Of a stretch of 52,595 bases of DNA, positions 5,978 to 46,886 are shown one piece after another. Made by a program: the position numbers and the translations under genes. The first letter of the stretch is position 1; every line of letters starts with the position of its first letter. The notes below the pieces were generated by a model. It was not told the DNA's origin. It saw only the letters and a program-made list of their open reading frames with translations, and ran no database searches. The stretch is from Craspedostauros australis (Eukaryota), in NCBI GenBank assembly GCA_030167865.1, contig JALAGF010003786.1:1-52595 (forward strand), in the 5' to 3' direction.

Positions 5978-8900
5978 CTACTTATTCACACACGACGCGG
6001 GGTTCTCCACGGGACAATCCGCAGATGCCGATGAGATCACGTAGACCTGTTGGCGTGGAATGCAGACCCGCCTCTGCACACACTCTGTGCATTGGTTGGC
6101 CCTGCAAGTGTCTCGCATCACGATCACGTCCGTGGTGGCGGCATCGGTGTTGGCCATGTCGCGACACGCGTTGGCGCCATCGCAGGCATCTTCCTGGATC
6201 TCCAAGCCGCCGCGAATTCTGCCAGTTGCGGAATGGGTGCCGGTGCAGGCGCGGCTTCCCTTGCAGGCATTGGGACCGATCTGGATGTGGCTTGTGATGG
6301 GGTTCAAGGCGAATCTGCCTTGCGTGGCACGCTTGCCGGTGCCTTGGCAGGCGCTGCGGCCGACGCAGGAGAATTCCCGGATGTGGAGCTTGCCGTAGAC
6401 GTTCACGCCGAGATCGGCGCAGCTATCGACGCTGGTGCAGGAACTTGGTCCGATGAGAATGGGGCCGGTGATGGCGTCCACGTGGGCTGCGGTGGTGGGC
6501 GTTCCCAGATTCTGGCAGGCATTTGGGCCCATACAGCTGGCGATGATGATGGCGTTCGATGCGATGTTGTCGCATGAGTTGGATCCGATGCAAGAGTTGC
6601 CGGACATGGTGGCGATGCGGTCAGGAAAGGAGCAGGCGCCGGAAGGGCAACACGTGGCGGCGCTGTTCGACGCGCAGGCGGATTCTACGAGCGGACCTGT
6701 GCCAGTGAAGAGCTCTTCGCCGGAGGTTGCTGCTGCGATCAACGAGGCGACTGCGGCGCTATCGTTCTTGACGAGATTGAATCGGGTTTGGGCATCTGCC
6801 TTCGACGCGAAGCCGAGTGCGACGCCGGTTCCCACGGCACATCCGAAGATGTTTCTGATCTTGTTGGCGTCATTGATGTCCATCGCTTCGATGGTCTCGA
6901 TGAAGCTGTTGCATGGATCCTCGGTCAAGTCACAGTACACGGTTGCTGGGATTGCTGCGGTGGCATACGTGGAGGGGTCGCCAGCTGTGGTCATGCATCC
7001 AACTTCCAGGTTCTTTCGGAAACGGGTTGGCGACAACGTAGGCGATGACGATGGGTATTCGGTCGGCGTCTCGGATGGCGCTGCGGAGTGCTTGAGGGTC
7101 GGTGCGCTCGTTGGGGCAGAAGTTGGCGCGGATGTTGGATTGAATGTCGGGTTGGCGGACGGCAGATTGGTCGGATTGTCGGTCGGCGATGACGAAGGCC
7201 TGTCCGTTGGAGCGAATGTCGGACTTTCGGTTGGCTGGTCGATCTTCTCCTCGCAGAAGGTGCCGATGCCGTACATGGCCGAAAGGCCTGCCATAGTCTT
7301 GGGACATGCTGACGCGGACGTGATCTTGTAAATCTGGGTGAACGGGTTGCAGATGGAGTTCTTCACGCACTCTGCGCATTCATACGCACCGCAAGTGTCT
7401 GCAGCAACGATGATGTCCGTGCGCATGACGTCGCTGGATCCCATCTCCTTGCATGCATTGTTGCCGTTGCAAGCACTGTGCTCGACGATGAAGCTTCCGC
7501 GGATCTTGACCGAGGACTGCGTGTGAGCGTGCTTGCAAGCATCCGTGCCTTTGCAGGCGTTCGGGCCGATCATGACATCAGAAGGGTCCTTGACGCTCCC
7601 GACCTGCGAACTGTGCGCGGCAACGTGCTTGCAGGCGTGTCTGCCCATGCAGGAACTGTCCTTGATGATAACGTCACCGTAAGAATATGCACCGACCCTT
7701 TGGCAGGCCTCGTCGGTAATGCACGCCGTGTGACCAACGAAGGTGATTCCTTTCATCTTGGGTGTCGCCGTGTCATCGTTGACGTTGATTGAAGAACAAG
7801 AACGAGTTCCGATGCAGCTGGAGTCGAGGACAAGGGGGCTATCACCCATGCTGGTGCAGGATTCTGTTCCCGTGCAGGCAAACGAAGCGATGGTCATGTA
7901 GCCATTTCCAGATGCCGTGGTGCAGGCACCCGCCGGGCAACAGTTCGATCCGCATGCCGACTCAATGCCGGCTCCAGAAAGTCCGGTGTACAACCGGATA
8001 CCACCTTCGTGCAGCTCCTTCAGATGGTCTGTGAGCACCTGGCTCGTCGCGAACTTGTTGAAGAGGGCGTTGGTGCCGTATCCGTTGCCGGAGTTAGCGC
8101 AAGCGAAGAACACCCGAAGGTCTTCATTCACCCGAAGCAACTCGAGCAATTCGACGCAGGAGTTCATGTTGATGTTGCAGTTGACGAGCATGGGCGCTGC
8201 ATTCGGCTCCGGAGTGCACCTCACTTGGACTGTCGATTCAATGTCGACTGGGGCCCTGGTTGGGGCGGATGTTGGATGGGCCGTTGGCCGAGATGTGGGC
8301 GTAGTCGTTGGGATGCTAGTTGGCGACGAGGTTGGACGAGAGGTCGGCGACGAAGTTGGAGTAGTCGTAGGCGCTCCGGTCGGTGTGCTTGTTGGCAGAT
8401 GCGTGGGTGCCGAGGTCGGGCTGCGCGTCGGTGACCTGGTTGGCGAACGAGTTGGAGTGCCTGTGGGAGCGCTCGTCGGTACGCTGGTTGGGAGGTGAGT
8501 TGGCCCGCTGGTGGGGGAAGCGGTTGGCGAATGCACCGGTGCACTCGTTGGAGCGCTGGTCGGTGCGCTGGTCGGGGTGCTGGTCGGGGTGCTGGTTGGA
8601 AAGCTGATGGGCGAACTCGACGGAGAGCGCGTTGGGGTGCTGGTCGGTGACGACGTCGGGGGTTTAGTCGGCGAGCGGGTCGGTTCGCTTGTGGCCGCAG
8701 CCTCATCGGGGTCTGTCAAGTCAAAGTCTTCGGTGTTGGATACTCCCGATATCGGATTGACCACCACGGTTGTTTGCGGGCCCGGGGTCGGGGCGCTGGT
8801 CGGGGCACTCGTGGGGGCACTCGTCGGAGATTTGGTTGGGAAGCTGGTTGGATTGCTTATCGGCGAGCTGGTGGGTGCGCTGGTTGGAAAGCTCGTTGGA

Positions 8901-9298
8901 TTGCTTATCGGCGAGCTGGTGGGTGCGCTGGTTGGAAAGCTCGTAGGGCTTTTCGTTGGCGTGTTTCGTGTCGCAGGCTGGAGGATGATTAGCTCTGGGC
9001 TGGTCCCTTGAGGCACTGGGTTTACCGTCGGGGCCGACGTGGGTGGCGAAGTTGCGTCGCTTTCTGGGCTGGCGGCGTCGTCCTTGACCTTCTTAGATCT
9101 TCCTTCCTTGCTCATCTTGGTTTCTGCCGAGCTCACGCCCTCGCCGCCCTCTCCCTTCAGCGTCCGGCTGTACTGAACCTGCACTTTGATTTCGTCGGTC
9201 CCCTGCTTTGCAGTCGCCTGAGTTTGAATGGTCGCACTGACGACTGCCATGTTGGCAATCAGGAAGGTGGCGAAAATTGCAGAGCGGAGTCTGAGCAT
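5978..9298 (-). CDS. Secreted mucin-like protein (1106 aa): signal peptide, RXL, two PTS-rich blocks alternating with two duplicated Cys-rich repeat domains
   Basis: Signal peptide MLRLRSAIFATFLIANMAVVSA; YSRTLK then K-rich stretch. PT[S/R]xPT tetrapeptide arrays at ~8250-9045 and ~7025-7245. Two homologous ~330-aa domains built of I-x-x-x-[AS]C-x-G-x-x-[AS]C repeats. Confidence 0.85.
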   Translation of the reverse strand: MLRLRSAIFATFLIANMAVVSATIQTQATAKQGTDEIKVQVQYSRTLKGEGGEGVSSAETKMSKEGRSKKVKDDAASPESDATSPPTSAPTVNPVPQGTSPELIILQPATRNTPTKSPTSFPTSAPTSSPISNPTSFPTSAPTSSPISNPTSFPTKSPTSAPTSAPTSAPTPGPQTTVVVNPISGVSNTEDFDLTDPDEAAATSEPTRSPTKPPTSSPTSTPTRSPSSSPISFPTSTPTSTPTSAPTSAPTSAPVHSPTASPTSGPTHLPTSVPTSAPTGTPTRSPTRSPTRSPTSAPTHLPTSTPTGAPTTTPTSSPTSRPTSSPTSIPTTTPTSRPTAHPTSAPTRAPVDIESTVQVRCTPEPNAAPMLVNCNINMNSCVELLELLRVNEDLRVFFACANSGNGYGTNALFNKFATSQVLTDHLKELHEGGIRLYTGLSGAGIESACGSNCCPAGACTTASGNGYMTIASFACTGTESCTSMGDSPLVLDSSCIGTRSCSSINVNDDTATPKMKGITFVGHTACITDEACQRVGAYSYGDVIIKDSSCMGRHACKHVAAHSSQVGSVKDPSDVMIGPNACKGTDACKHAHTQSSVKIRGSFIVEHSACNGNNACKEMGSSDVMRTDIIVAADTCGAYECAECVKNSICNPFTQIYKITSASACPKTMAGLSAMYGIGTFCEEKIDQPTESPTFAPTDRPSSSPTDNPTNLPSANPTFNPTSAPTSAPTSAPTLKHSAAPSETPTEYPSSSPTLSPTRFRKNLEVGCMTTAGDPSTYATAAIPATVYCDLTEDPCNSFIETIEAMDINDANKIRNIFGCAVGTGVALGFASKADAQTRFNLVKNDSAAVASLIAAATSGEELFTGTGPLVESACASNSAATCCPSGACSFPDRIATMSGNSCIGSNSCDNIASNAIIIASCMGPNACQNLGTPTTAAHVDAITGPILIGPSSCTSVDSCADLGVNVYGKLHIREFSCVGRSACQGTGKRATQGRFALNPITSHIQIGPNACKGSRACTGTHSATGRIRGGLEIQEDACDGANACRDMANTDAATTDVIVMRDTCRANQCTECVQRRVCIPRQQVYVISSASADCPVENPASCVNK
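8250..9045 (-). repeat. Coding 12-bp-period tandem repeat (PTS[A/S]-type mucin repeats)
   Basis: Long run of PTSAPTSSPTRSP-type units; also keeps antisense frames open (VGALVG ORFs). Confidence 0.85.
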
Positions 9299-10744
9299 GA
9301 TGATTCGTGAACTGTTTAGCTTGGTTGCTTGGTTGGATTTGGAGACACACTGATTTGGTTGGTGTGCGTGCCTATTCGAATGTGATACCCGTCGATTGTT
9401 CGATGTTGTATGTTCTTCGTCTTGATGGCGTTGAAGGCTGCGGTTGTCGAGCGATGGCGATTGGAATGAATAGTTCGATTGAGTATATTATCGTTGCTGT
9501 TGTTAGGAATTGTTGTGAGACGACATGAGATAAAGAAGTGTGAGAGATGCGCCTTGGGAGACACAGTGAGCATTGTACCAACTCGAATCATCTGCGGCAC
9601 GAAGAGGATGAAAGTAGACCCCGCGATGCGAGCAGGGATGACGATGGCGATGAACTTACCGGAGTTTGATGTTTATGCTCCTTGCTGTTGCTTTTGCGTT
9701 TGGGATGATGTTCGATCTTGTGAGGAGATGGAGGATCCATGCCAACCTGAGTGAACCTGGCCAAGTCGTCGCCTGATGGCCTTCCACAAGACTCCATGAG
9801 GTTGCTCACACAATCTTGTGCGCGGGGTCTTGTTGGCGTCTCGATTGCTCGCCATGTTGGATTCGTGTTGTGAACTCGGCGAATGATCGAGACGTGACTG
9901 ACGACACGATTTTGTCGAATGTTCGCCAATTCGATGCAGGAAACCTTAATTGATGACGTCTCATGGACAATAATGTTGTACTCTTCAGTGTCAAACAAGA
10001 ACGCAAACCAAACCTCGTGTTTGCGAGTGGATTGGATAGGACCGTGACGTCAGGCATTTCTCAGCGCTTGATAAATGCCATGTAAGTACGTTCTCTATTT
10101 TATGCTTCAGTTTACACGTTGTCTTTGAGACAGATATCGTTTTGTGGTACTCTTTATCAGATGGTACCATTGGTATCTGCGAAAGTGCGTACCAACAGTC
10201 ATGACGTGGAAAAACACGATCAAAACAACAACACTCTCCGCCAACCAAAACGGGAGAAATAGATTCCTCTTCGTTGCAGCCTTTCCCCAGTCGGCTCCAC
10301 GCTTTTTTCGCGCAAAGGGACGCAACCAGAAATGCGAATCGAAGATCATTGGCGCACACATCGGCACACATCACACACCAAGAATGAGAACAACCACCAG
10401 CCAATCCTCTCCAGCAAGCGTTCCGATGACGCTTGCGCTCGTCACAGCCAACCACCCAACCGAATCGAATTGAATCTGGGCAACTCTCCGCTCACTTTTC
10501 GTGCTTTCGTCTCTTTCGCTGGCCACGAAATAGTGTTCTGCGACATTTCGCTGCGTTACGATCAAGTTCCATCACAATCTGTTGCAAGTGGAGGACTCTG
10601 CTCTACCATGCGCATAGAGTAATCCACCGCAGTCCATCCGACACAACAACAGTAGCGATACAGACAGAGCAGAACACTCTTCTGTATGCACATATATCAT
10701 ACGTAGACACCGTTCATTAATCACGACGACACACAAGCCTCAGC

Positions 10745-11821
10745 ATGTTGGACGATCACGACTGTCGCACTGCCATTGCCCATTCTGCGGCACAGTGTGA
10801 GCTCAAGCATGGGCATTCACATCAGCATGAAACTGGGTACGACCACCCGCACCTGCGTGAGCATCATGCCTCCGACAAAACGAGTGTCCATGATGGTAAT
10901 GACATTGATGACGACGACAGCAGCAGCATTGCCAGCAATAACAGCTTCGATGCCGCTGCTGCGATGATGATGAGAGGCGCCTTCTTGCGCAAGCTGCGGG
11001 AGATAGAGCTGGAGGACGAGGCCGCTCGAGAGGCTGATGATACCGAGGCCACCTCATCGTCCATGTCCTCGTCATCGTCATCATCTCTAGCTGGCCACTG
11101 TGATGACACCTTGGACTACAAGTCCTACCTCGCCGATCAATCCTACTACGATGACTACAAGCATGTCAATTACAAATTCATCGATTACGGTGCGATCGTC
11201 GCATCCGATAAATCGCTCGTCATCGAGCAGGATCGAACCATCGGCAAGGGAGGATTTTGCTGGGATCCTGGTTTCATCCTCGGCCAACATTTCCTCTCCA
11301 TGCTGCCAACCATTAAGAAGAGCGACGGCAACAGAATCAACGGGATTTTGGAATTGGGAAGCGGACCGGGCGTCGCAGGACTCATGGCAGCACAGGCCTT
11401 GCCCGATGTTCCTGTCCATCTCACGGATCTGCCAGAAGTACTGCCCTTGCTGCAGCGCAACGTTGCGGCACTGCCCAATGCATCGGCGTCCACCTTGAGG
11501 TGGGGAACAACACCAGCAACATCGCAATCGTCGTTATCACCCAAATACGATGTCATTTTGGGCGGCGACGTCGTGGCGTCGATTTACAGCACATCTGCGC
11601 TCATTCAGACCTTGCGAGACATGTCGCATGCCGACACATGGATCGTCATCAGCGTGCGGGACCGATTGGCATCGACGATTGAGCCATTCGAAGCGGAGAT
11701 GCGGCGGCTCTTCCAGTATGTGGATCGTTGCGCACCGCAGAGCGATCTCAAGACACCCAACGTGTTCATCTTTGTGGCGCATGGCAAGAAGGAGGAAGGC
11801 GGAGATGCGCAGCAGCAATGA
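10745..11821 (+). CDS. Seven-beta-strand protein lysine methyltransferase (METTL21 / Methyltransf_16-like)
   Basis: IEQDRTIGKGGFCWDPG, motif I ILELGSGPGVAGL, LTDLPEVLPLLQRNV, LRWG and YDVILGGDVV; His- and acid-rich N-terminal extension. Exact start uncertain. Confidence 0.85.
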   Translation: MLDDHDCRTAIAHSAAQCELKHGHSHQHETGYDHPHLREHHASDKTSVHDGNDIDDDDSSSIASNNSFDAAAAMMMRGAFLRKLREIELEDEAAREADDTEATSSSMSSSSSSSLAGHCDDTLDYKSYLADQSYYDDYKHVNYKFIDYGAIVASDKSLVIEQDRTIGKGGFCWDPGFILGQHFLSMLPTIKKSDGNRINGILELGSGPGVAGLMAAQALPDVPVHLTDLPEVLPLLQRNVAALPNASASTLRWGTTPATSQSSLSPKYDVILGGDVVASIYSTSALIQTLRDMSHADTWIVISVRDRLASTIEPFEAEMRRLFQYVDRCAPQSDLKTPNVFIFVAHGKKEEGGDAQQQ

Positions 11822-12558: not shown

Positions 12559-14457
12559 TTACTGTCTCTTGGCTCCCTTTGTGGTCTTGGATCCCTTGTG
12601 CGTTGGATCGTCGGCGTTATGCGTCGGTGATTGCATGCCCTTCAGCCCCTTCGCCATCTTGGGCGTCTTGGTGCTCTTCGTTGTTTTGGAGACCGAGGCT
12701 GTTTGTGCCGTTGTCGTCGTCTGCTTGATGGAGTCCTTGAACGCGGCGCGTCCAAACTCTTGGCCAGCAGCAAAGGCGCTGGCTGTTATGGCGATCGTCT
12801 CTTGGGTGTTCTTCTGCTCTTCCCCGGCAACGTCGAAGTCGTCTGCGAGCAGATCCTCCAGCTCGTCCAGGTCATCCAAGCCGAGACCCATGAAGACGGA
12901 GGCGGCTGTGTCCGTAGACATGGACATTGACATGGACATGGACATGGACATCGACATGGACATCATCACCGGTGGCATAGTCTGCTGCACAGGTGACAAA
13001 GTTGGCGCCGCTGAGCCAGTTGGTGCCGGCGTACCAGCGGTCGGTGCCTGGCTGTCGGTCTGCCCTGAGACTGGCATACGCGTGGGTGTTCCGCTTGGTG
13101 GTGTACTTGGCGATGCGCTTGGCATTTCGCTCGGCGTTGTACTTGGCGGCGCACTTGGCGATGCGCTTGGCGCTGCGCTGGGCGATGCACTTGGCGATGC
13201 ACTTGGTGGTGTGCTGGGCGACTGGCTTGGTGAGACCGATGGAGTGGCCGTTGGCAGGGAGGTTGGTGCGCTGGTGGGTTGGGACGTCGGCGGCAGGGTC
13301 GGTGCAGATGTTGGGACAGGGGCATCTGGACAGAAGTCTCCGTTGATTGGGCCCAGATTTTCCTACGTGGCCAGATAGAATGGAACGGAGCCGACATGGA
13401 AGGATTGAGTGCGTTCCCGGAACACGCGGTCGTTGCCGGGGTACGCAAAACGGCGTCATGGGACAGAGAGCGATGGCCATCGCGTTCGTAGTGCGGTTGG
13501 CAGTGCAGTTTGCAGTGTGAATGCGATGTGCGTCAGTTGTGTCATCCAAAGTTGGATGGTGTTGTGATTGGCAGCGCGGCGCGTGATGGCATGGCATCCG
13601 ACGGTCCCATAATCCAGCACGCAGTTTGGGCCATATGATGGAAACGGTGTCAGATATTGGGTTGTGCGTTGCACGTTGTCGCGGCACAGTGCATTCGACA
13701 AGGTTTGGCGATGCGAAACGGACGAGACAACAGAAAAAGAAACAAATGCAGTTTTGAGAGAATAGGTTGTTTTGGAATGAATCGATAAGACCAATCAATG
13801 ATCTTCAGACGCAACCATACACAAAGAATCACATTCACCGATCATCATCAGACTCTCAACCCAGGACAGCGCCACACGCACTATGCCATGCCATGCCATG
13901 CCATGCCATGCCATGTACAGCGTTTCGTTTGAACTTACGAAGACGACCCAACCGATGCTGTTTCCTGTTGTGATGACTGGGAATTGGTCGCACTCGTTGG
14001 TGAAAATGAACGAAAGGGTTTGGATGATGTTCTGATCGAACTGATTCAGACCGGTGATGTCCATCTGGATACCTCGCGGCAGCTGTAGCTGCCCGTTGAT
14101 GTTGTCGGAGTCATCAATGATGGAAATGTACGTGAACGTGTCTCCGTTCAGGAACAGTCTGTCATCCAGCAGCGTGGTCTTGACGGGACGCAAGTCTTGC
14201 CCGAGTTCTAGGATCGTGACATCACCGACGGAGATGGGAGTCAGATCGGTGGTTGTTTGCTGATTCTCTGGCGTAACGAAACAGAGGGAGGTGTCGATAC
14301 CGCGAAGATCAAGGTTGTCGATCGGAGGACATATCAGAGCAAAGTTGAACCGGAACTGGTACGTCCTGGCAGAGCAGGCGCACACATCATCCTGTGCGGC
14401 TGCTGGCGCCAGTAGGAGCGACAGCAGTATCGTCGAAAGGAATGCAGCGATGCTCAT
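12559..14457 (-). CDS. Secreted protein A (~440 aa): CAC-type N-terminal domain, PTS linker, (SM)n repeat and K-x-x periodic tail; 2 exons (14457-13939, 13362-12559)
   Basis: Signal peptide MSIAAFLSTILLSLLLAPAAA|QDDVCACS. Donor GTAAGT at 13938 after GWVVF; acceptor CGTAG at 13363; phase-0 join gives GWVVF-ENLGPINGDFCP, in frame with ORF 12559-13125. Confidence 0.8.
13882..13915. repeat. (ATGCC)n pentanucleotide microsatellite inside the intron of protein A
   Basis: atgccatgccatgccatgccatgccatgccatg read directly. Confidence 0.8.
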
Positions 14458-16502
14458 GATGTGATGGTGGCGTCTGGCTCGTCTCGTTGTCGGGTTGCGC
14501 TGTATGCGTTGTTTTGCGTCGAATGCACCCTCTTCGTCGTCGTCGTCGTCGTCGTTGTTGCCGTAGATCAACTCCACAGATTTCGGAGGAGCGTATGCAA
14601 AGCGGTGATGGGTGCTGATCTCGTGGTCGTGAGAGTACTGTTGTTGATGCCGCTGCTGTCGATGAAGCTGTTGTTGGCCGCGGTGGTGGTAGCTACGATG
14701 TTTCTGTTCGTTCTTCTCTCTCAAAGACGCGTCCAATTGCTAATCTTTCGTGTATTCAACTCCAAACAAACGGTGTTGATGAATTGGAAGCAGGGCGTGA
14801 GGTTTGTGAGCTGATGTATGCGCTATCGGTGTATGGACGGATCGTGAGTCTTTGCAATGAATTTTGTGTCTTCAGCAACATGCCCTCCAACAGCGTTTAT
14901 TCGCACAACAAGCAACTGGGCGGACAGAGACGGGAGAGAAGGAGGTACAGCAACCGAGATGTAGCTACAGGCAGTGGAAGAAGGAAGACGGAAGAGGCCA
15001 CATACATACCATGAGCACAGTGGCGTCGGCTTCTGATCCCGCTCCCTTGCGCATCCAAGGCAAACAACCTCCCTTTTTTGATGAAGCTGACCAAAAAGAT
15101 GAGGCCAACGAACAAAAATTTGCGTCGACAGGATTGAGTGTTCTATTTCTCATGTCTGACCGTTATCGAGCGCGTCGTGTTGGCGTAATTGTCAACTTTT
15201 TTGGTGACCGTCCAACTCTCTGCTCTGCCTGATGTCTCACACAAACCGATGAACAAATTGTGGCGGTGGTCTCCGTTCAGTTGCGTGATTTTGTCGTTCT
15301 TGGTTCGATCGCCATCGCAACCTTTCTCAAACCACGAACTCACGTCCGCGTTGGAGAGAGGTGTGGCCAACCTGCGGGGCAGGAGAGGACGAGGAGTACT
15401 CTTGCCATCGCTGATTGCCCCTTGGTGGACCATCGTTTGCACGTTACTGTTTTTGTTGATCATAAAGCCATCGTCTTCGATCAACAAAATCCGTGGCCAT
15501 CAACAAAAGAAGCCTCTATCGCTGAATGGTTGAGCGATTGAGAGCGGAATAGTAGGAAGACCACGTGAAGGATGAAGCTGCAGAATGGATCGACATCAGC
15601 AGGGCGCCAACATGGCTTCGGGGGACGAGCGCGGGTGCCGGTGCCGGTGCCTCTATCAGGCCTTCTTGTGGTAGGGCGAGGCGGATCATGCTTCAGGGTT
15701 CTATCTCAGGAGGGTGTGATGGAATGGAATGCCACACCCCAAGCTGGATGAGCACTCATGGGCACGTACGAGTGCAGTGGCAGTGATGACGATGGCGCAA
15801 GCGAAGATGCCAGCAACGCTGACCACGTTGGCCCTGGTCATGGACAAGACCGCGACGATGGTCGTCAAGACGATTCTTCGATCCTCATGCATGCGGTACG
15901 TTCATATGGCAAAGATGATCGACGATCAACCAGCATCGTCATCCTTCCAGACACCATCCACGCACGACGCACCATCTATCGTTTCATACTTGTTGCGACC
16001 GAGCCATTTGATCAGCTGATGAGACCTCATCATGTCCGTGGATCGAGGTACTGCCAGGCTCCACGGAAACCGCATATGCTCGGACCTGCAAGAAACAAAG
16101 CGCTGTTCATTGATTCAATGGTTCATTGGTTTACTTGTTAACTTTTGTTCTTTTGAGGATGTGAATACTATACAAACACGTGTGTATCTATGGCGTGCAG
16201 AATTGCCCGATGGAAGGGCATGTCCCGCTCTCTGGTGTGCTTCGGTGGAACTTGGCCGGCGTCAAGCCTGTGTACAATTTGGTCATGGAGATCTTCGACT
16301 GCGTGAAGAGCGTCGTCGTTGTCGGATCTCATCCTTGGCTTGCGGGTGCTGCATGGCTCATGCCCGCAAGTCTGAGCTGGATCGAGGAGGGGAAGCTCGA
16401 GATTTGGCGTGCTGCCACGACGATTGTGGCCGGATGGGCACGGTTTGACCGATGGGGCCATGCTCATGATATTGCGCGCTGTGCCCAAATCTATGCGTCA
16501 AC

Positions 16503-19500
16503 CTACTGCAGATCCTCCTGGATCGAAGCCATCGGTGTGCTCTGCATGTTGGCTGTGCTCTCGACCGTTTCTTCTCCCAAAAGCCTGTCTTTGCTTGACT
16601 TGCTGCCCTTGCCCTTGCCTTCGTCGGAATCAGAGTCAGAGCTATCGGATTTGCTGGACTTGCTGCCCTTGCCCTTGCCATCTTCGGAGGTAGTAGTCGG
16701 ACTGTCGTAGTATCCCTTGCCCTTGCCCTTTCCGTCCGCTGAGTCCGAATCAGAGCTGTCGGATTTGCTGGATTTGCTACCCTTACCCTTTCCGTCATCG
16801 GAGGTATCAGACTTATCGGACTTGCTCCCCTTGCCCTTTCCGTCGTTAGAGTCAGAGTCAGAGCTACCAGACTTGCTGGATTTGCTGCCCTTGCCCTTGG
16901 CGTCATCGGAGGTATCAGACTTGTCGGACTTGCTGGACTTGCTGCCCTTGCCCTTGCCATCTTCGGAGGTAGTAGTCGGACTGTCGTAGTATCCCTTGCC
17001 CTTGCCCTTTCCGTCCGCTGAGTCCGAATCAGAGCTGTCGGATTTGTCGGACTTGCTGGACTTGCTGCCCTTGCCCTTGCCGTCATCGGAGGTATCAGAC
17101 TTGCTGGATTTGCTGCCCTTGCCCTTGCCGTCTCCGGAAGTGTCAGATGTGGTGCCCTTGCCCTTGCCCTTGCCTTCATCAGAAGTGTCAGACTTGTCGG
17201 ACTTGCTGCCCTTGCCCTTGCCGTCATCGGAGGTATCAGACTTATCGGACTTGCTCCCCTTGCCCTTGCCATCATCAGAAGTGTCAGACTTGTCGGATTT
17301 GCTGGACTTGCCGCCCTTGCCCTTGCTGTCATCGGAAGTGTCGGACTTGCTGGATTTACTGCCCTTGCCCTTTCCGTCGCCGGAGGTATCAGACTTGCTG
17401 GATTTGCTGCCCTTGCCCTTCCCGTCTTGAGAGGTATCAGATGTAGTACCCTTTCCTTTGCCCTTGCCTTCATCGGAAGTGTCGGACTTGCTGGATTTGC
17501 TTCCCTTGCCCTTGCCGTCATCGGAGGTATCAGACTTGCTGGATTTGCCGCCCTTGCCTTTGCCGTCTTGAGAGGTATCAGATGTGGTACCCTTTCCTTT
17601 GCCCTTGCCTTCATCGGAAGTGTCGGACTTGCTGGACTTGCTGCCCTTGCCCTTGCCCTTGCCGTCATCGGAAGTGTCGGACTTGCTGGATTTGCTGCCC
17701 TTGCCCTTGCCCTTGCCGTCATCGGAGGTATCAGACTTGCTGGATTTGCTGCCCTTGCCCTTCCCGTCTTGAGAGGTATCAGATGTGGTACCCTTTCCTT
17801 TGCCCTTGCCTTCATCGGAAGTGTCGGACTTGCTGGATTTGCTGCCTTTGCCCTTGCCGTCATCGGAAGTGTCGGACTTGCTGGATTTACTGCCCTTGCC
17901 CTTGCCCTTGCCGTCATCGGAAGTGTCGGACTTGCTGGATTTGCTGCCCTTGCCCTTGCCTTTGCCATCATCGGAGGTGTCGGACTTGCTGGACTTGCTG
18001 CCCTTGCCCTTTCCATCTCCGGAGGTAGTAGTCGGGCTGTCGTAGTATCCCTTGCCCTTGCCCTTGCCGTCTCCGGAAGCGTCAGATGTGGTGCCCTTGC
18101 CCTTGCCCTTGCCTTCATCAGAAGTGTCAGACTTGTCAGACTTGCTGGATTTGCTGCCCTTGCCCTTGCCGTCATCGGAGGTATCAGACTTGTCGGACTT
18201 GCTGGACTTGCTGCCCTTGCCCTTGCCATCTCCGGAAGTATCAGATGTAGTGCCCTTGCCCTTGCCCTTGCCTTCATCAGAAGTGTCGGACTTGCTGGAT
18301 TTGCTGTCCTTGCCCTTGCCGTCTTCGGACTTGTCAGACTTGCTGGACTTGCTGCCCTTGCCATCTTCGGAGGCATCAGATGTGCTGCCCTTTCCTTTGC
18401 CTTTTCCATCGTCGGATGAGGTCGTCTTGTCCGACTTGCTGGACTTGCTGCCCTTGCCCTTGCCCTTGCCCTTGCCCTTGCCATCTTCGGATGTAGTCGT
18501 GCTTCCCTTGCCCTTGCCCTTGCCGCCACCACTCTTGTAGTAGTTACCGGCGTCGTAGTATTCGTACGAGTTCGGGTCGCCACGGGAAACCTTCCCGCGC
18601 GTGCCAACCGGCTTCGTGACAACGGTATCAGTTCCTTGGACGTCGCCGCCTCCGTTGCTTTGCTCTTGTGGTTCGTAGCTGTCCCTGTCAACAAGTGGCG
18701 TCTTTGGGATTCGGAGGTTCGTGGTGCGACCAGCTGAGTCTGCGGCTTCTCCATCCGTGACCTCCGTTGTCGTCTCGTCCTCTCTGCCGAACTCGTCCTG
18801 GAGGACGACGGGATCATCCATCTCGAGATCGACGCCGAGAGCCATAGACATCTGGCCGGAAGGATTTGACATCGATGGCGTCATGGATGGCTGGTAGGTA
18901 GGAGATGACGTGGCAGGCAACTTGGTTGGTCCTGAGGTCGGGGAGGTGGTTGGCGCAGCGGAGATGGTGGGAGGATTCGTTGCTGGGAGCCCTGGCGAGA
19001 GCGGGCAAAGAGATTTGCGTGCGTTGCCCACTTCTTCCTGCGAATGCAAATGATGACGGTTGTGAAGGCAGGAAATGCAACATAGCACGATAAGATGTCG
19101 ACGAAGAATAGCGAGAGGAATGAGTGAGTGAATGAGTGATTTAGTACCGTTCTTCATCAGATTTGGAAACCCGAGAAATCTGGGCCATGAAAGACCACAG
19201 CAACAAATCAAAACGAAGCATTGCGAGTTGATGCGGGGTGCGCGCAACCTCCAAGTTGAGACACTGCAATGCGACGCGGCGCGATCGCTCGCACAAGAAA
19301 CCCATCGTTGGCCGTACTTACGATTGTGATCCAGCCAACGCTGTCACCTGCGTTGAGGACTGGGAATGCTCCGCATTCGTTGTTGAAAACGATCGTGAGA
19401 AGATTGATGATGGATTCCTGCTCGTCGTTGTCTGCTAGGACGTCAATCTGAAGTGCACGGGGGACGTCGTTCATGTCCATGATCTGGTCCGAAAGAGCAG

Positions 19501-19858
19501 AGAGCGAAGAGTATTCAAATTCGAATCCATCCTCGAACTCTCCTTCGCGCACGTCCTTGACCAGCGGGCGGAAGTTCTGATCAAGCTCGATGATTTCGAT
19601 CTTCGTCCCGTTGACGGGCACCAAGTTCTGCACGTCATCATCGAGGTAGGGGTTGATGAAGCATCGGATTTCCTTGACGCCGTTGTTCATGGTGGCGTTG
19701 CTTGGTGGGCAGACCATGTCGAAGTCGATCTTGAATCTGTAGAAGCTTGGCGAGCAAGCGCAGATGTCTGTTCCGATTTCTTGCGCAGTCGAAAGCATCG
19801 GGGATGCAAGCAATGGCAGCATGATGGCTGCTGCCGAATGCATAACGCTCTTCATCAT
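16503..19858 (-). CDS. Secreted silaffin/cingulin-like protein B (~1023 aa): CAC-type N-terminal domain plus ~650-aa K/G/S/D repeat and C-terminal RXL; 2 exons (19858-19322, 19037-16503)
   Basis: Signal peptide MMKSVMHSAAAIMLPLLASPMLSTA|QEIGTDICACSP. Donor GTAAGT at 19321 after GWITI; acceptor TTCGCAG at 19038; phase-0 join GWITI-EEVGNARKSLCP is in frame with ORF 16503-19247. Repeat DDGKGKGSKSSKSDTS; ends KSSKDRLLGEE...DLQ. Confidence 0.85.
16590..18537 (-). repeat. Coding minisatellite array encoding GKGKG/SKSSKSD/YYDSPTTT units
   Basis: Highly repetitive cccttg / gacttgctgga units; about 24 KSSK motifs by hand count and three GKGYYDSPTTTS units (near 16704, 16983, 18039). Confidence 0.92.
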
Positions 19859-26690: not shown

Positions 26691-27547
26691 GCACTAACAA
26701 GGACAACATCATAAACTATAACTAGCAAAGCAAGCAAACAAAAAATCAATAGTCTCCAACAAGGCTCTGGGGGCCAAGCTCCCAGAATGGCGGCCCATAC
26801 GCCCAGAGTATTCCGGTGGTGGTGCCATTTGGCGGTACTATTGCGTACACGCATCGCACTCTGCTACCTTCCTCTCCCTTTCGCAATAGTCCCCCTTGTT
26901 GCCAATCGCACAACAATTCTGCACGTTGCTTTTCGTGTCTTGTACTCTACTATATTCGCGATCCAAGTTGAAGAGTCATCTTCGTGGGGAGCTCTCCCTC
27001 AGCCCAGCAGAGAGGGGCACTTGCCTGAGGGGCTGACCCTCCCGAACGAGCTACGACTATGTATAGTAGTCCTCTTTGACCTTTCTGCCACATCGCACAT
27101 GGCACTGACATGGCATTTCTGTACCCGCCTTTCTCGAATCCTCTGTTCTGAGTTAAGATCGGTCTTCTATCATCGCCCTCATCCTCGCACCCACGACAGA
27201 AACGAGATGCGAATTGTTGCCGTTGTTCAAATTCCAAAGTTCCCGAAGTGTACCACTCGTCACCTCTCTGCCTTGTGGGGACCTGGGATCATACTTTGAT
27301 TCCTTCGAGTCATTAACCATGATTAGAGGCTCATCCCCAGCTGACCCGCCACCAATTCGCCACTCCCAACAGACAATCTTCGCTGCTTTCCCGCTACAAG
27401 CAGCGCCGCAGAACAACCGCATCAACACAGCACCAGCGCACAGAGGAAGGAGGTGCCAACCAAATCAAACCAGAGGCTCCCCTCTGACGCTGTGATTAGA
27501 TCCAAACGAACGTGGAGGTCGCTAGCTCCCATGTTGGAGGTGTTCAG

Positions 27548-30079
27548 ATGATGAGACATGGCCGACGCAGCGTCCAGTCCAAGCGGCTGGGAGGCGGCAA
27601 GTCATCCTCCTCGAGTACGAGTCGGGGGATGTTGGTGAACAAGTTCACGGTGCTGGCCTACTGCTCCGTGTTGATTGTCATTTGGATCGGCCTGACGAGA
27701 AGGATCCTGCCTCTCGCAGAGCCTCATGGCGCTGCGCAGCCTGATTGGCAGTTGCCAAAGATCAGTCCTCATACTGGCAAGCAACCTCCGTCGCATGGCC
27801 ACCGCCATTCCACGGTCCGCGTCTCCGATGACGGCAGCCAGATTCTGTCGCAGTGCACACCAACGCACAAGGCCTGCCATGGCTTCGACGGCGTCCTCCA
27901 CATCCGCAGCGGCGATTACGGCGGGGCATCGGGCACCATCTTCTTCCAATTCGTCATCGCGCAGCTCATGTACGCGGATGCCCACAATCTGCTGCCGTGG
28001 ATTCATCTAGACGAATTCTCCCATCTCGTCTACGATCCCATCGTGCATGGGCGCAGCGATGCCGCCGTCATGGTCCGGTTGCTCAAGGGCATGGAGGTCA
28101 GCACTATTCAGGATGCACGTCGCAATCATGCCATGTATCCCGGCAGACCGGTCAGGAACGAGACCGCGCTCACGGACCACACTTACGCGTTTGCCGGCAC
28201 CGGCGTTTGGAATCATTACTTCCAACCCATCTCAGAGTACTGTCCGGGTGATCGATCCTGCGACAACGCGGTACCGTACATCACGATGGAGAATTATCAT
28301 ATCTCGCCTGGGTTGCACCGGTACGCGCCGTGGTCGCCCAAGGTCTGGCGGTATGGCAACATGCCATCCTTCATCGCGCAACCGCACATCCCACTGTCGC
28401 GGTGGCTGCTGCCGCAACGACAACGTGCTGCGGCGATTGTCCGGAAGTACGATCAATTCCGAGTGCAACCATGGCTGGAGGAACTATCCGTCATCCATGC
28501 CGATGACAAGTGCCTGGGGATGCATATTCGATGGTCCGACAAGGCAGGGACGCGCCGGTTGTTGCAGATCGATGAATTCCTGCCGTACGTCCTAGAATAC
28601 ATGCGCCAGCGACCGACGAAGGCTTGCATCTACCTTGCCACGGATTCGACCAAGGTTATCGAATCCATCCATGCCACGTGGCCGCAGGAGGTCCAAAGCA
28701 AGCTCCAATTCTCTTCGTCGACCATCCGATCATCCGATACGACCGCGGTGTTTGACATGGAATCGCACCATCGCACCAACAGCGAAGTCCTTCGGGATAT
28801 CCTGGATTTGTCCAAATGCGCCTTTTTGATTGGTGGCAAATCGGCGGTGACCGAATCCGCGATCTACTGGAACCCAGCTCTCATCTTCCAATCCATCAAT
28901 CTGGAAGATCCGTCACATCTCTCGGTGCAAACGTTCGGCGATCTTGTCGGCAAGGTCGTGCAAGGCGAGATCACAGACGAGACCTGGTCGCGGTACAAGA
29001 GTCCGCCAGGTTGGTGGGAAGAAGGTGCAACCAAAGATTCCAATATCCACAAGGCCTGTTCTGCGACGACGAACACACTTTGGAATGTCACGCAACCGAT
29101 TTCCAACGGTGCGGAGCAATGGACACCGGCCACCAAGATCAGCCAGCGACTCTTCATCCACCTTCCCAACGCATTTCATGCGATTGAATCGAAGCAGGAA
29201 AGTGCGGCGGTCGGTTTCAACGATCCGTTGTGGAAGGCCTGGTTCCGATCGGATGCGTGGATCACTTCGAATGCTGTTGCCACTTCTGCTGAGGCATCAA
29301 TGCCATGCGGCCAGATCTTCCCATTCGGAGATGAGCAGATCACCGATCGATCCATCTTTCCGTCCACCTCGTACTTGGGTTCCAAACGAGGCAAGGCCAG
29401 TGCCGACATGACCATCCCCTACACAGAATGGATGCAGCAGATGCGACAAGTTGCACGGCCGGTCTTTCAAAAGTTCTATTCTTCCGTACGGCCATCCATC
29501 CGCAACGAAGCATCGCGCGTGATGCAACGCGTTGTGCATAATGGCACAAACGATGACGTTGCGCCATTTCCGCGGTTGCATGACGCCACTGCGCAGGCAG
29601 AACCCTCAAGCAGCAGCGCTGCCTGCCTGGGCCTTCATATTCCCGATCCCGGATACCATCGCAATCGCAAATTGAAGCAATGGATCTCCAATGCATTCCC
29701 CGAAGACACGTACTTGGACTATCTCCGCGCCTTTCGGCGTGCCGGCGGCAGCTGCGTCTACCTAGCGACGGATTCTCATTCAATGTGGGAAGACTTCCGC
29801 AACACGACGATCGTGATGCACGGACAATGGAACGCCGTGCGCAATCGGGAGCACATTCCAATTCATTACATGGAGGAGGATCTCGTGCGAATTGGCAGCG
29901 AGATGTTGGTGGACGTAATCAACCTGTCCAGAACGTTGTTCCTCGTACATGCGTCGCATCCGATGTCGGATGGGGTGCTGTTCTGGAACTCGGAGTTGGA
30001 ACATCTGCATGTGGACGATCCCAATCGGATCGGGGTGGAAGAGTTCGAAACTGAGATCCGTCGCAGGTTGGGAGAGTAA
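27548..30079 (+). CDS. Type II membrane glycosyltransferase with two tandem GT23/NodZ-like (alpha-1,6-fucosyltransferase-like) modules
   Basis: Short basic N-tail plus one TM helix. Module 1: CLGMHIRWSDK, IYLATDS, DILDLSKCAFLIGGKSAV. Module 2: CLGLHIPDPG, VYLATDS, DVINLSRTLFLVHASH. Confidence 0.72.
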   Translation: MMRHGRRSVQSKRLGGGKSSSSSTSRGMLVNKFTVLAYCSVLIVIWIGLTRRILPLAEPHGAAQPDWQLPKISPHTGKQPPSHGHRHSTVRVSDDGSQILSQCTPTHKACHGFDGVLHIRSGDYGGASGTIFFQFVIAQLMYADAHNLLPWIHLDEFSHLVYDPIVHGRSDAAVMVRLLKGMEVSTIQDARRNHAMYPGRPVRNETALTDHTYAFAGTGVWNHYFQPISEYCPGDRSCDNAVPYITMENYHISPGLHRYAPWSPKVWRYGNMPSFIAQPHIPLSRWLLPQRQRAAAIVRKYDQFRVQPWLEELSVIHADDKCLGMHIRWSDKAGTRRLLQIDEFLPYVLEYMRQRPTKACIYLATDSTKVIESIHATWPQEVQSKLQFSSSTIRSSDTTAVFDMESHHRTNSEVLRDILDLSKCAFLIGGKSAVTESAIYWNPALIFQSINLEDPSHLSVQTFGDLVGKVVQGEITDETWSRYKSPPGWWEEGATKDSNIHKACSATTNTLWNVTQPISNGAEQWTPATKISQRLFIHLPNAFHAIESKQESAAVGFNDPLWKAWFRSDAWITSNAVATSAEASMPCGQIFPFGDEQITDRSIFPSTSYLGSKRGKASADMTIPYTEWMQQMRQVARPVFQKFYSSVRPSIRNEASRVMQRVVHNGTNDDVAPFPRLHDATAQAEPSSSSAACLGLHIPDPGYHRNRKLKQWISNAFPEDTYLDYLRAFRRAGGSCVYLATDSHSMWEDFRNTTIVMHGQWNAVRNREHIPIHYMEEDLVRIGSEMLVDVINLSRTLFLVHASHPMSDGVLFWNSELEHLHVDDPNRIGVEEFETEIRRRLGE

Positions 30080-30387: not shown

Positions 30388-31116
30388 CTACGACTCGAAG
30401 AAGAAGGAGTGCACCCCAAAGACGAGGAAGATGAGACCGCCCACCAAACTGACAGTCTTTTCCGAAATCCTCGCCGCCAGCATGCGGCCACCCACGACGG
30501 CCAACCCAGTGCACATGGTGTGACCGAGGCAACCACCCAAGGTGACACCGTACGGATCCTTGGCAGCCGCCAGCGCTATCGTCGCGATCTGGGATCGATC
30601 GCCCCATTCGGCCAGGAAGGTGAGCATGAACGACTGCAGGACGACCTGCGTGAATGTTTTCTGCTTGGATTTGTTCGCGACATCTCCCGCGGCTTCCATC
30701 TGTTCCAAGGCGGTGTCATCGCCATCGTCCTTCTTGGGGTGCAGGAGCTCCTCCTCCACCTCCTCTAGCTCCTCGCTGACCTGATGCGTCTGCATGGATC
30801 GGCTGTCCCACAGCAGCTTGATGCCGAAGTAGAAGAAGAGGAAGCCTCCCATGAGATGCGTGTGCTTGGGCTCGAGGAATTGCGGCAGTACCAGCCCCAT
30901 CATCGTCGACAGCACCGTCATGACGTAGAGGCTGGAGATGGCGCCGCTGAAGACTGCCGTGCGGGGATGGCTCATGGACAGCACGGCGGCGATGAAGAAG
31001 GTCTTGTCGCCGATCTCGGTGGCCAGGATCATGGCGACGCCTCCCGTGAAGCCTTTCCAGAATCCGCCCTTGTAGGCAGGCAGGATGCTGGACAAAAGCG
31101 TGGTCACGGCGGACAT
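30388..31116 (-). CDS. GDT1: GDT1/TMEM165 (UPF0016) Ca2+/Mn2+ transporter, 242 aa
   Basis: Two signature motifs EIGDKT and EWGDRSQ, acidic loop ELEEVEEEL, and GHTMCTGLAVVGG. ATG at 31116. Confidence 0.93.
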   Translation of the reverse strand: MSAVTTLLSSILPAYKGGFWKGFTGGVAMILATEIGDKTFFIAAVLSMSHPRTAVFSGAISSLYVMTVLSTMMGLVLPQFLEPKHTHLMGGFLFFYFGIKLLWDSRSMQTHQVSEELEEVEEELLHPKKDDGDDTALEQMEAAGDVANKSKQKTFTQVVLQSFMLTFLAEWGDRSQIATIALAAAKDPYGVTLGGCLGHTMCTGLAVVGGRMLAARISEKTVSLVGGLIFLVFGVHSFFFES

Positions 31117-32120
31117 TGTGTATATGTTGTATACTATATGCAATATGCTATGTAGTGGGGTATGTAGTGGGGTAGTGGTTGTTTGGTTGGGTGGGTCGTC
31201 AGTTGGATGGAGGCTCGTCTTCACACTGCGGTACCAATGGGTCGTACTGCTGCTCTGCTGCGCTTGGACTTGTTGTGTGTGGCAGCAATTGTGACTTCCC
31301 CATCGACTCGATGAAGACACCAACAACAACCGTGAAGCGTCATCACGATGGTGGCACTCTTGTTGGTTGGAGTCGTTGTCGTCGCGTTGTCATTGGGACG
31401 TTCGCGAATGGGGAAATGTCGAAAGACCACGACTGCATCTCATACGAGTCCCGCTTTTTCTCAGCTATTGATTCGTTTGACCATTCGAAACAACAAAGAA
31501 CGATTGATTCACGAGTTCATGTTCGTGATTGACCGAGAACGAGTTTTGGGATCATACGGGTCGCATGATCTGTCAGTCGGCCGTTGCGGTCATCTGGTCT
31601 TGTGCAATGACTCCTACGCGCCAACGGTGTAGCAGTTACGTACGTGAGCATGTGTCAGCAACAGAATCCTGTCAGAGCAGGAGAGAACACACAATTTCGA
31701 GGACCACAGCTCGAAACAGCAACAACAGCAACAACAGCCACTAACGCTAGATAGGATCGTCTTCTGTGTGTCTTGAGGTCTCTCCTTTGCAGCACCTACC
31801 AGCTTGCAAGCATCAGAATTCTTCCTCACGATTCAAATTCAAGCTTGGAGGTCGCAATCGCTGGTCGCGCTCACAACCGAATCCATCAACACCACGAATT
31901 GACCGAATCAGCAATGGACAAGAGAGATTTGATGACACGCAAGAATCCAGACGAGCACCTAACATTTTGTCGATTTTCACTTTTCTAACTCATGACTTAA
32001 TATAACGGGACTTAAAACACAGCGTTGAGACAAAAAGTGAATCAGCTGAAATCCTGAAAAGCGTACTTAGGGTTGCGCTATTGCTCTTGAATTGTCGTTG
32101 GTTCAGGCCCAAAGAGAGAG

Positions 32121-46411: not shown

Positions 46412-46886
46412 GCTTTCTCCTCTCTTTGATATTATAGAATATTATACTACTATAATAGTCGTAATACTGTATTGGTACCTACTATTCTACTATGGTTGTG
46501 AGTATTGCCGTTGTCCAAGTATTGCTCCCTCCTGATTGTCGTCGACGGCGTTCATGTCATCATGGAAGTGCGAGCAGACCACAGACCAAGGGGAACGGAG
46601 TCGTGGCACAAGATGGGCGAATTTTGAGAATTCAGATCCGTGACTCGCTAGTCACGGAGTGCGCCAAGGATCGCGAAGGAAGGATCGTGTCCACAAAACG
46701 AGAGCACAAACTGCCACGATCAACATGTGGAACTCACCAAGAGAGGAGAGACCAAGCAAAACCCGAGAGGGCGTTGTTGGCACAATTGCGTGGATCGGCA
46801 GCCGCATGAATACTCGCGCAAATGCTCCCGTTCAATTCCAAACCCACAAGATAGAGAGCAATCAAAGAAAGGAACGAGTGCAAACC

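Follow-up and report, generated by a model that had tools for sequence, protein, structure and literature searches.

The proteins so far known to shape the silica of diatoms are for the most part low-complexity, species-specific and without detectable homologs (10.1101/2021.09.18.460806); the lack of homologs has hampered comparative work on them. RRIL or RRNL is removed from silaffin repeats, RXL may mark processing sites more generally, and in cingulins, KXXK regions alternate with Trp/Tyr-rich regions (Lechner and Becker review, PMC4557024). A further type of region, the lysine-enriched region (LER), is defined for cingulins by at least two K(S/G)2K motifs no more than 4 residues apart (published example, KSSKGSSKSSK), and LER-bearing frustule proteins of Thalassiosira pseudonana localize to the girdle band (Tp12162) and the fultoportulae (Tp5357) (Fattorini & Maier 2022, PMC9650480). 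Here and below, the literature is cited from the parts of each source that deal with the proteins or motifs in question. We analyzed a gene, called the target, at positions 16503 to 19858 on the minus strand of a 52,595-nucleotide stretch of DNA (the window) from the diatom Craspedostauros australis (assembly GCA_030167865.1, contig JALAGF010003786.1). Its predicted product joins a folded, Cys-containing N-terminal domain (N-domain) to a long array of alternating basic and acidic blocks. A first-pass annotation of this DNA had described it as a silaffin- or cingulin-like protein of unrecognized architecture. What that annotation observed, namely the gene model and the motif counts, was confirmed, and its interpretation is supported in part: the target appears to be an expanded member of a large diatom family, and we lean, by a modest degree, towards reading it as a frustule- or biosilica-associated matrix protein with a hyper-expanded zwitterionic tail.

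The target gene consists of two exons and translates into 1023 residues; all its coordinates are on the minus strand. Exon 1 (19858-19322; 537 nt, 179 residues) begins with the ATG at 19858 and ends with ...GWITI. The phase 0 intron (19321-19038; 284 nt) runs from GTAAGT to CAG, with a pyrimidine-rich tract before the CAG, and exon 2 (19037-16506; 844 residues) starts with EEVGNARKSLCP and is followed by a stop codon at 16505-16503. When the donor was fixed, only two AGs were compatible with an open long frame; exon 2 would start at 19151 with one and at 19037 with the other. Only the latter restores the spacing between GWxx[FI] and a downstream Cys seen in relatives. An exon 2 starting at 19151 (170-nt intron) has an open frame as well, but was rejected because the 38 mostly hydrophobic residues that it inserts destroy the conserved spacing to this Cys.

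The junction was surveyed in the 150 best N-domain representatives, 145 of which possess GWxx[FI], the motif that ends exon 1. Thirty of the 145 are spliced and continue to a Cys-Pro located 6-14 residues after the motif. In 105 others, the motif is followed by V, then by S, R or a similar residue, and then by junk, because a prokaryote-style gene caller reads into the GT... of the intron. It is because of this read-through of a conserved intron in 105 of 145 stored relatives (P0007-P0153) that the family architecture has been hidden from routine annotation. Environmental loci, 34 of which were retrieved from metagenome contigs using a 14-sequence alignment, are contiguous across the junction in 22 cases and read through in 12, and the spliced relatives include transcripts (MMETSP). 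Of 21 spliced relatives chosen by hand, 20 have a Cys exactly 11 residues past GWxx[FI], as the target does after the 19322/19037 join, and this +11 Cys is invariant in an alignment of 31 spliced relatives. An AlphaFold2 (AF2) model of one of them (P0016) places the last strand (183-188) across the junction with a predicted local distance difference test score (pLDDT) of 97, then 83 up to the Cys; model confidence drops below 50 in the tail past it. The 19322/19037 splice, proposed in the first-pass annotation, is thus supported by a conserved intron position and downstream Cys, both in relatives and in a tandem paralog within the window. Judged by this conservation, the target is a real two-exon diatom gene.

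The first 25 residues of the product (19784-19858, including the start codon) resemble a signal peptide, with predicted cleavage after ..STA and before QEIG. In a Kyte-Doolittle scan, the 11-residue mean has its maximum, 2.05, in residues 8-19, and small residues occupy positions -3 and -1 before QEIG; homologs likewise carry a hydrophobic stretch immediately ahead of Q(E/D)IG. The highest 19-residue mean (1.47, at residue 5) is not matched by a second hydrophobic segment, and the scan revealed neither a transmembrane (TM) segment nor a hydrophobic C-terminus. The target is therefore predicted to encode a secreted, non-membrane protein, in line with the signal peptide claimed earlier.

Next to the signal-peptide-like segment lies the N-domain of about 165 residues. 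Its exon-1 part (19322-19783, residues 26-179) contains Cys 33, 35, 50, 66 and 162, and its end, EEVGNARKSLCP at the start of exon 2 (19002-19037), supplies the sixth conserved Cys at residue 190. These six are the only Cys residues in the target and all fall at columns that are invariant or nearly so; C33, C35, C50 and N144 are invariant in the family alignment. Consistent with the folded Cys domain expected by the first-pass annotation, AF2 with a 140-sequence alignment predicted a seven-strand beta-sandwich for residues ~30-179 (pLDDT 88.3; predicted template modeling score 0.79). No match at E<=1e-3 was obtained when Foldseek was run with this model against PDB, and an exhaustive structural aligner (VIA-align 2) found generic sandwiches alone, the best being the N-terminal domain of 9q05_A (Z 6.3). 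The model resembles C2-like and Ig-like folds in being a seven- to eight-strand sandwich, and the many C2 matches had Z of 5.0-5.7 with root-mean-square deviations of 3.6-4.9 A over 91-115 residues. However, Z below 8 is the range that the aligner terms a common arrangement, and we claim no C2 membership; C2 domains are cytosolic, whereas the N-domain of the target is predicted to be disulfide-rich and extracellular.

Between the N-domain and the array, exon 2 encodes a series of short elements, the first three of which have counterparts in relatives. A Pro/Thr/Ser-rich linker (18894-19001, residues 192-227) corresponds to Pro/Thr-rich (PT) linkers at the same place in relatives. It is followed by a degenerate Met/Ser motif, PSMTPSMS..QMSMA (18840-18890, residues 229-245), which is the counterpart of the family's MSMSMSM and contains one MSM and no SMSM. 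An acidic segment then ends with QDEFGRED (18777-18800, residues 259-266), and (D/E)EFG(R) occupies the same relative place in relatives. Directly ahead of the array is a Tyr-rich segment, NSYEYYDAGNYYKS (18531-18572, residues 335-348).

The array itself (16587-18530, residues 349-996) is 648 residues long and is built from 38 tandem units of 11-25 residues, the commonest being GKGKGSKSSKSDTSDD. Five residues, S (26.2%), K (23.8%), G (21.3%), D (16.0%) and T (8.0%), sum to 95% of its composition. Every unit pairs a basic GKGK(G)SKSSK block with an acidic block of S, D and T that comes after it, giving 154 K against 116 D plus E (+38 before any modification) without a single KK dipeptide. Recomputed motif counts agree with those first reported: 24 KSSK and three GKGYYDSPTTTS units (18021-18056, 16965-17000 and 16686-16721), to which can be added 18 overlapping GKGKGK, 53 GKGK and 61 K..K. 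As also reported, the array ends with ...KSSKD and is followed by RLL (16578-16586, residues 997-999) and by a C-terminal tail of 24 mostly acidic or neutral residues with the stop codon (16503-16577). A scan for RXL returned three sites, at residues 97, 134 and 997; since 97 and 134 (the latter in a conserved PRA[IL]Q motif) are part of the beta-sandwich, RLL is the sole R-x-L outside the folded domain. With Tandem Repeats Finder, a 48-nt period (26.5 copies, 72% matches) was detected along with periods of 141 and 279 nt, and the tail of the target has been expanded by tandem duplication to its 38 units.

A chance origin of these motifs was checked against all 219 stop-to-stop frames of at least 100 residues in the window. 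The target frame alone has 100-residue windows with at least 18 S and at least 10 K (611 windows), and no other frame reaches three K[SG][SG]K motifs, of which the target frame has 50. Between array units of equal length, differences at codon positions 1, 2 and 3 number 145, 133 and 617, respectively, and 471 codon differences are synonymous versus 241 non-synonymous. Six of the 8 recurring unit types exist in at least two DNA versions, units identical in protein mostly differ in DNA, and the G+C content at third codon positions (GC3) is 0.71 in the array and 0.70 in exon 1. The concentration of unit differences at third codon positions indicates that the K/G/S/D frame of the array is under protein-level selection. 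Two other open frames that overlap the array, one of 840 residues rich in Ala and Arg (16358-18880, minus strand) and one of 465 residues rich in Leu, Ala and Gly (17022-18419, plus strand), were rejected as low-complexity by-products because third-position variation and continuity from the conserved linker motifs are found only in the K/G/S/D frame.

How the array compares with silica-associated proteins can be stated motif by motif. Applying the LER definition, we counted 23 LER-type clusters in the target (21 KGSKSSK and 2 KGGKSSK). The motifs KS.KS, SKS.K and GKS.K, each enriched more than 20-fold in soluble silica-associated proteomes (10.1101/2021.09.18.460806), occur 32, 32 and 2 times. 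A weaker silica-targeting feature, at least two K..K motifs no more than 10 residues apart, was also described there, and in the target 45 of 60 gaps between successive K..K motifs are no longer than 10 residues. The same source reports that a penta-lysine pattern, K..K..K.{1,2}K..K, occurs in TpSil1-4; in a looser wording (five non-consecutive Lys in 12-14 residues), the pattern is found in 13 12-residue and 16 14-residue windows of the target. These counts support the likeness to silaffin and cingulin sequence features that the first-pass annotation had pointed out.

The likeness to silaffins (Sil1p of Cylindrotheca fusiformis; TpSil1-4) extends to layout. As described, these are made as secreted precursors in which Lys/Ser-rich peptides recur and KXXK motifs are clustered, and a basic R-x-L type motif that ends the Lys-rich peptide is removed on maturation; in the target, RLL follows the end of the array. 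Silaffins become zwitterionic once their Ser residues are phosphorylated, whereas negative charge is already encoded as Asp in the target, and the accounts show no conserved folded domain in silaffins to compare with the six-Cys beta-sandwich. The definition of silaffins is biochemical and comprises release on silica dissolution, polyamine- or methyl-modified Lys, phospho-Ser and silica precipitation. In the target, there is no RXL between units, and the array, unlike that of Sil1p, would therefore not be cut into peptides.

Cingulins, which belong to the girdle-band microrings that ammonium fluoride leaves undissolved, have a signal peptide, where the target has a signal-peptide-like N-terminus, and share with the target the lack of a TM segment, K(S/G)2K clusters in LERs and Tyr-containing segments. 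However, the lysine clusters of the target alternate with acidic S/D/T blocks and not with aromatic-rich regions, and the passages describing cingulins contain no folded N-terminal Cys domain such as that of the target. The Tyr-rich segments of CinY, to which the first-pass annotation had likened parts of the target, have no real equivalent in the array: Tyr makes up 0.9% of it (6 residues, against 16 in the whole protein, which has one Trp), YYD is present in 3 of 38 units, and alternating aromatic-rich regions are missing. Among the LER-bearing proteins, Tp12162 (415 residues) carries a motif after residue 271, its LER spans 337-372, and an RXL follows residue 410, five residues from the end (Fattorini & Maier 2022, PMC9650480). 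By description, this layout, with an LER near the C-terminus and then RXL, parallels that of the target family; none of three short motifs taken from the published LER of Tp12162 was found in 204 collected proteins.

Two further comparisons, again by description, concern proteins that resemble other parts of the target. MSMSM together with KXXK (mostly KSSK) is present in Thaps3_24597 and Thaps3_25838, which cluster with TpSil3 in expression, and Thaps3_25838 has an endoplasmic reticulum (ER) signal peptide and KXXK at its C-terminal end (Shrestha et al. 2012, PMC3478156). The target family likewise combines an MSMSM-type motif with KxxK-type repeats, and SMSM is enriched in two motif clusters of silica-associated proteomes (10.1101/2021.09.18.460806). 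We found no further work on these two proteins in the open literature. AC3362 of Amphora coffeaeformis combines a signal peptide with KG dipeptide repeats and Tyr-rich stretches, and was localized experimentally to the ammonium-fluoride-insoluble matrix of valves and girdle bands and not to adhesive trails (Buhmann et al. 2014, PMC4220933). The target resembles it in its signal-peptide-like N-terminus, KG repeats and Tyr-containing stretches, and differs in that AC3362 is rich in Pro and Tyr (>10 mol% Y) and has no N-terminal Cys domain reported in that account.

To place the N-domain, exon 1 was searched with phmmer against 1.84 billion representatives, which gave 722 matches at E<=1e-3, 422 at E<=1e-10 and 33 at E<=1e-30. 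The best matches reached E 3.6e-51, and identity to single-domain members was 40-46%. Neither exon matched a Pfam family at E<=1, and ESM Atlas gave no usable match to the target. A word-indexed protein search returned one match with the single domain and 50, all without a Pfam domain, with the family alignment (A1) at near lengths; with A1 and a length range of 852-2430 there were no matches. Named members come from diatoms only: Epithemia clementina, Entomoneis paludosa, Pseudo-nitzschia multiseries, Mayamaea pseudoterrestris, Nitzschia inconspicua (auto-named 'filamentous hemagglutinin family') and Attheya sp. A description of this family was not found in the open-access literature, a scope that leaves subscription papers and supplements outside.

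Spliced relatives follow one module order: a signal peptide, a domain ending with xLxPPxxxxC(P), a PT linker, an MSMSM-type motif, an acidic segment that often has (D/E)EFG, a Lys-rich tail and a basic C-terminus. Among the 22 contiguous environmental open reading frames (ORFs), all contain MSM (1-2 or more each), and 20 have a 60-residue window with at least 13 Lys. RLR is found within the last 16 residues in 16 of the 21 that have a stop codon, typically as ...K(K/R)RLRI. The RXL site noticed in the first-pass annotation is thus present in the target as RLL, but the conserved C-terminal element of the family is RLR(I/V) and not a strict RXL; it also lies nearer the C-terminus in relatives than RLL does in the target, although one relative (L013) has ..GLRRI followed by an acidic tail, as in the target. 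The tails of relatives consist of KxxK-type repeats of variable flavor, such as KDGKAKDGKSKDGK, itself zwitterionic, GKGGKGGKG, SKGSKGSKG and, in L010, KSSKSSKSSKSSKSGKGKSSKSSMRL. Their K-rich spans measure 4-261 residues in 21 complete environmental relatives, versus 648 in the target. The target has the profile match, the six Cys, the phase 0 intron, the order of linker, Met/Ser motif and EFG, and the KxxK tail with an R-L motif. By these shared features it belongs to a large, unnamed, diatom-specific family, in which module order is a family trait and tail length is not. The architecture, which the first-pass annotation did not recognize from characterized silaffins, is therefore not a one-off and is better described as an expanded form of a common plan.

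The family also includes other arrangements. Three members (P0004, P0005 and P0006) carry 2-4 tandem N-domain copies per protein, and in P0005, from Epithemia, the copies are followed by GHGKKEKSGDDDDDD repeats, another zwitterionic tail. In two genomic contigs (L027 and L028), an insert of about 35 codons at the intron position is in frame and open, and the ORF continues into a long tail with KSSKSSKSSKSGKSGK and a run of more than 10 GKG units, the closest seen to the expansion in the target.

On the frustule-matrix reading that we favor, secretion, localization, modification, processing and assembly are all read across from silaffins and cingulins. The protein would be imported co-translationally into the ER and passed onward to the silica deposition vesicle or the cell surface. 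Its KxxK clusters would be recognized by lysine-modifying enzymes and its Ser/Thr-Asp blocks by secretory kinases, so that alkylation of Lys and phosphorylation of Ser/Thr, as in silaffins, are probable. The lysine clusters would target the protein to forming silica and retain it in or on the silica, while the alternating charge blocks may drive electrostatic self-association of chains and binding to polyamines or silicic acid. The beta-sandwich N-domain might act as an anchoring or assembly module, and RLL might be a proteolytic site at which the C-terminal peptide is trimmed off.

Several points weigh against this reading. Of the six genera named as sources, five are raphid pennates, as is Amphora coffeaeformis, and a role in gliding or adhesion is conceivable. 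The named family members are all 'hypothetical' or auto-named, and none is characterized or localized. In the model, the fold class of the N-domain is clear, and no functional clue comes from it. The splice, the expression and the length of the array are deduced from a single assembly and from homology. Asp-rich spacers inside a lysine array are atypical of cingulin LERs, and the strict penta-lysine pattern has 0 matches in the target. The silaffin-like screen of Brembu et al. 2017 called for a signal peptide and repeated K[SG][SG]K motifs 1-6 residues apart; gaps between the 50 such motifs of the target are either -1 (a shared Lys, 23 cases) or 9-45 residues, none being 1-6, and this spacing is therefore not strictly reproduced. 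Above all, the link to silica is one of likeness in motif, composition and layout, and not of homology to a characterized silaffin or cingulin.

Among other explanations, the one that survives best, though we think it unlikely, makes the target a secreted glycoprotein of the surface or extracellular matrix (mucilage, adhesion, gliding trail or coat) with no part in silica or its formation. The PT linker would then serve as a stalk of the mucin type, with the charged tail binding anionic polysaccharides instead of silica. A signal-peptide-like N-terminus, a PT linker, a disordered charged tail and the lack of a TM segment are all compatible with such a protein, and the named relatives come mostly from benthic or raphid genera; the family is nevertheless also present in Attheya. 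The history of AC3362 bears on both sides: Lys/Gly/Tyr-rich repeats were first sought in Amphora as candidate adhesives, yet AC3362 proved absent from adhesive trails and resided in the insoluble matrix of the wall (PMC4220933). What tips the balance towards a frustule protein is that SKS.K, KS.KS, LER-type clusters and MSM are motifs of silica-associated proteomes.

A second alternative assigns the Met/Ser motif and the Lys/Asp tail to the handling of metal, for example Cu(I), or of polyanions such as polyphosphate, sulfated glycans or nucleic acids at the cell surface, and not to the building of a matrix. Met-rich motifs bind Cu(I) in other proteins, the MSMSM-type motif is conserved in the family, and the unmodified array has a strong net positive charge (+38). 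However, the Met motif of the target is degenerate, with its single MSM, and the tail has neither His nor Cys; furthermore, MSMSM and KSSK are paired in genes co-expressed with a silaffin (PMC3478156). We regard this explanation as improbable.

Hardly more credit, and if anything slightly less, can be given to a third, in which the N-domain gene is real while the 648-residue array is young, unstable or mis-assembled and adds no function, or in which the gene is silent or becoming a pseudogene. The array is at least 2.5 times the K-rich span of the 21 complete environmental relatives, some of its units are identical in DNA, and its length rests on a single assembly. Against this stand a frame that remains open for 844 codons, the third-position bias (617 versus 145 and 133), a ratio of synonymous to non-synonymous differences of about 2:1, a GC3 equal to that of exon 1 and the multiple DNA versions of most recurring unit types. 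Least probable is an unused junction, with exon 1 yielding a secreted domain protein of ~217 residues that ends within the intron and the repeat ORF untranslated or separate without a signal peptide: the read-through frame is open for 38 codons past the donor and the splice is backed by homology alone, but the domain would be left without the sixth of its conserved Cys residues and with a truncated last strand, cDNA-like relatives at 22 of 34 loci and MMETSP transcripts show the same continuation, the paralog repeats the intron pattern, and the array frame varies in coding fashion.

The paralog was revealed by hmmsearch of the six-frame translated window with the family profile (A1), which produced two matches only, the target (E 1.5e-69) and a second at 14739-13798 (E 5.9e-60). 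The second gene (12559-14457, minus strand) encodes 440 residues in the module order of the target with a short K/T-rich tail, and lies on the same strand 1.8 kb downstream of the target stop. Its exon 1 (14457-13939) ends with GWVVF, its intron (13938-13363, GTAAGT..TAG) has the donor at the same codon position as in the target, and its exon 2 (13362-12562) starts with ENLGPINGDFCP, which again places a Cys at +11. Exon 2 also encodes a Pro/Ser/Thr linker, a perfect MMSMSMSMSMSMSMSMS run, an acidic stretch and QEFGR. The N-domains of target and paralog are 34% identical (E 2e-33), and the duplication is therefore old. Members P0172 and P0180 are recorded on contigs of equal size (14809 nt), as are P0201 and P0203 (23812 nt), which suggests that tandem pairs like target and paralog occur in other diatoms.

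Other genes of the window were also inspected. A third minus-strand frame (5978-9487; 1169 residues stop-to-stop) looks secreted. It carries DUF7640 and extended PT repeats (Pfam PT), and in its two Cys-rich regions IG..SC occurs three times and G..AC ten times. Together with the target and the paralog, it makes three genes for secreted PT-linker proteins on this strand in a span of 14 kb. One cluster of soluble silica-associated proteins (SSPs), which includes the fultoportula protein TpSSP16, is reported to have 'type a' Cys motifs (IGxxSC, GxxACxxN) (10.1101/2021.09.18.460806). The Cys motifs of the frame recall them, and exact G..AC..N has 0 matches in it. Between these putative wall-protein genes sits an ORF for a Methyltransf_16 lysine methyltransferase of the non-histone type (10721-11821, plus strand). 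We considered it as a silaffin-modifying enzyme and rejected it; its N-terminus is not signal-peptide-like, and for this reason no link to silaffin methylation is claimed. The remaining neighbors with Pfam matches are ordinary and consistent with a diatom nuclear contig. They include an ORF with a helicase-associated (HA) domain (45017-46441, minus strand), a domain that is expanded in diatoms, and a GDT1 cation/proton antiporter (30388-31389, minus strand); a further ORF (27500-30079, plus strand) has a weak FUT8-like fucosyltransferase match under the Pfam cut-off.

A broader reading, which we put forward tentatively and consider possible rather than likely, is that silaffin-type lysine-rich peptides, commonly described as not conserved in sequence, are the C-terminal module of one conserved precursor family present in many diatoms. 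In that case, the six-Cys beta-sandwich may be a sorting, assembly or matrix-anchoring domain, MSMSM (observed in the TpSil3-co-expressed genes in 2012 but given no explanation) and (D/E)EFG may be a shared targeting or processing signal, and the basic R-L C-terminus may be a maturation site. The target may then be an extreme case, a polyampholyte of ~650 residues that unites silaffin-like and silacidin-like charges in one chain, and such a chain could phase-separate alone and template silica. Tp12162 could be a member of the same family.

What is new in the target is the combination of a silaffin/cingulin-type lysine-cluster tail, with built-in acidic spacers and of extreme length, with a conserved, foldable and unannotated diatom domain. 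Should the family prove to be frustule-associated, three consequences would follow: 1) its profile would provide a homology handle for silica-matrix proteins in any diatom genome or metatranscriptome; 2) its tails, ranging from about 30 to 650 residues, would form a natural length series for the effects of lysine-cluster number and acidic spacers on silica targeting and morphology; and 3) the unexplained MSMSM motif would acquire a concrete candidate role.

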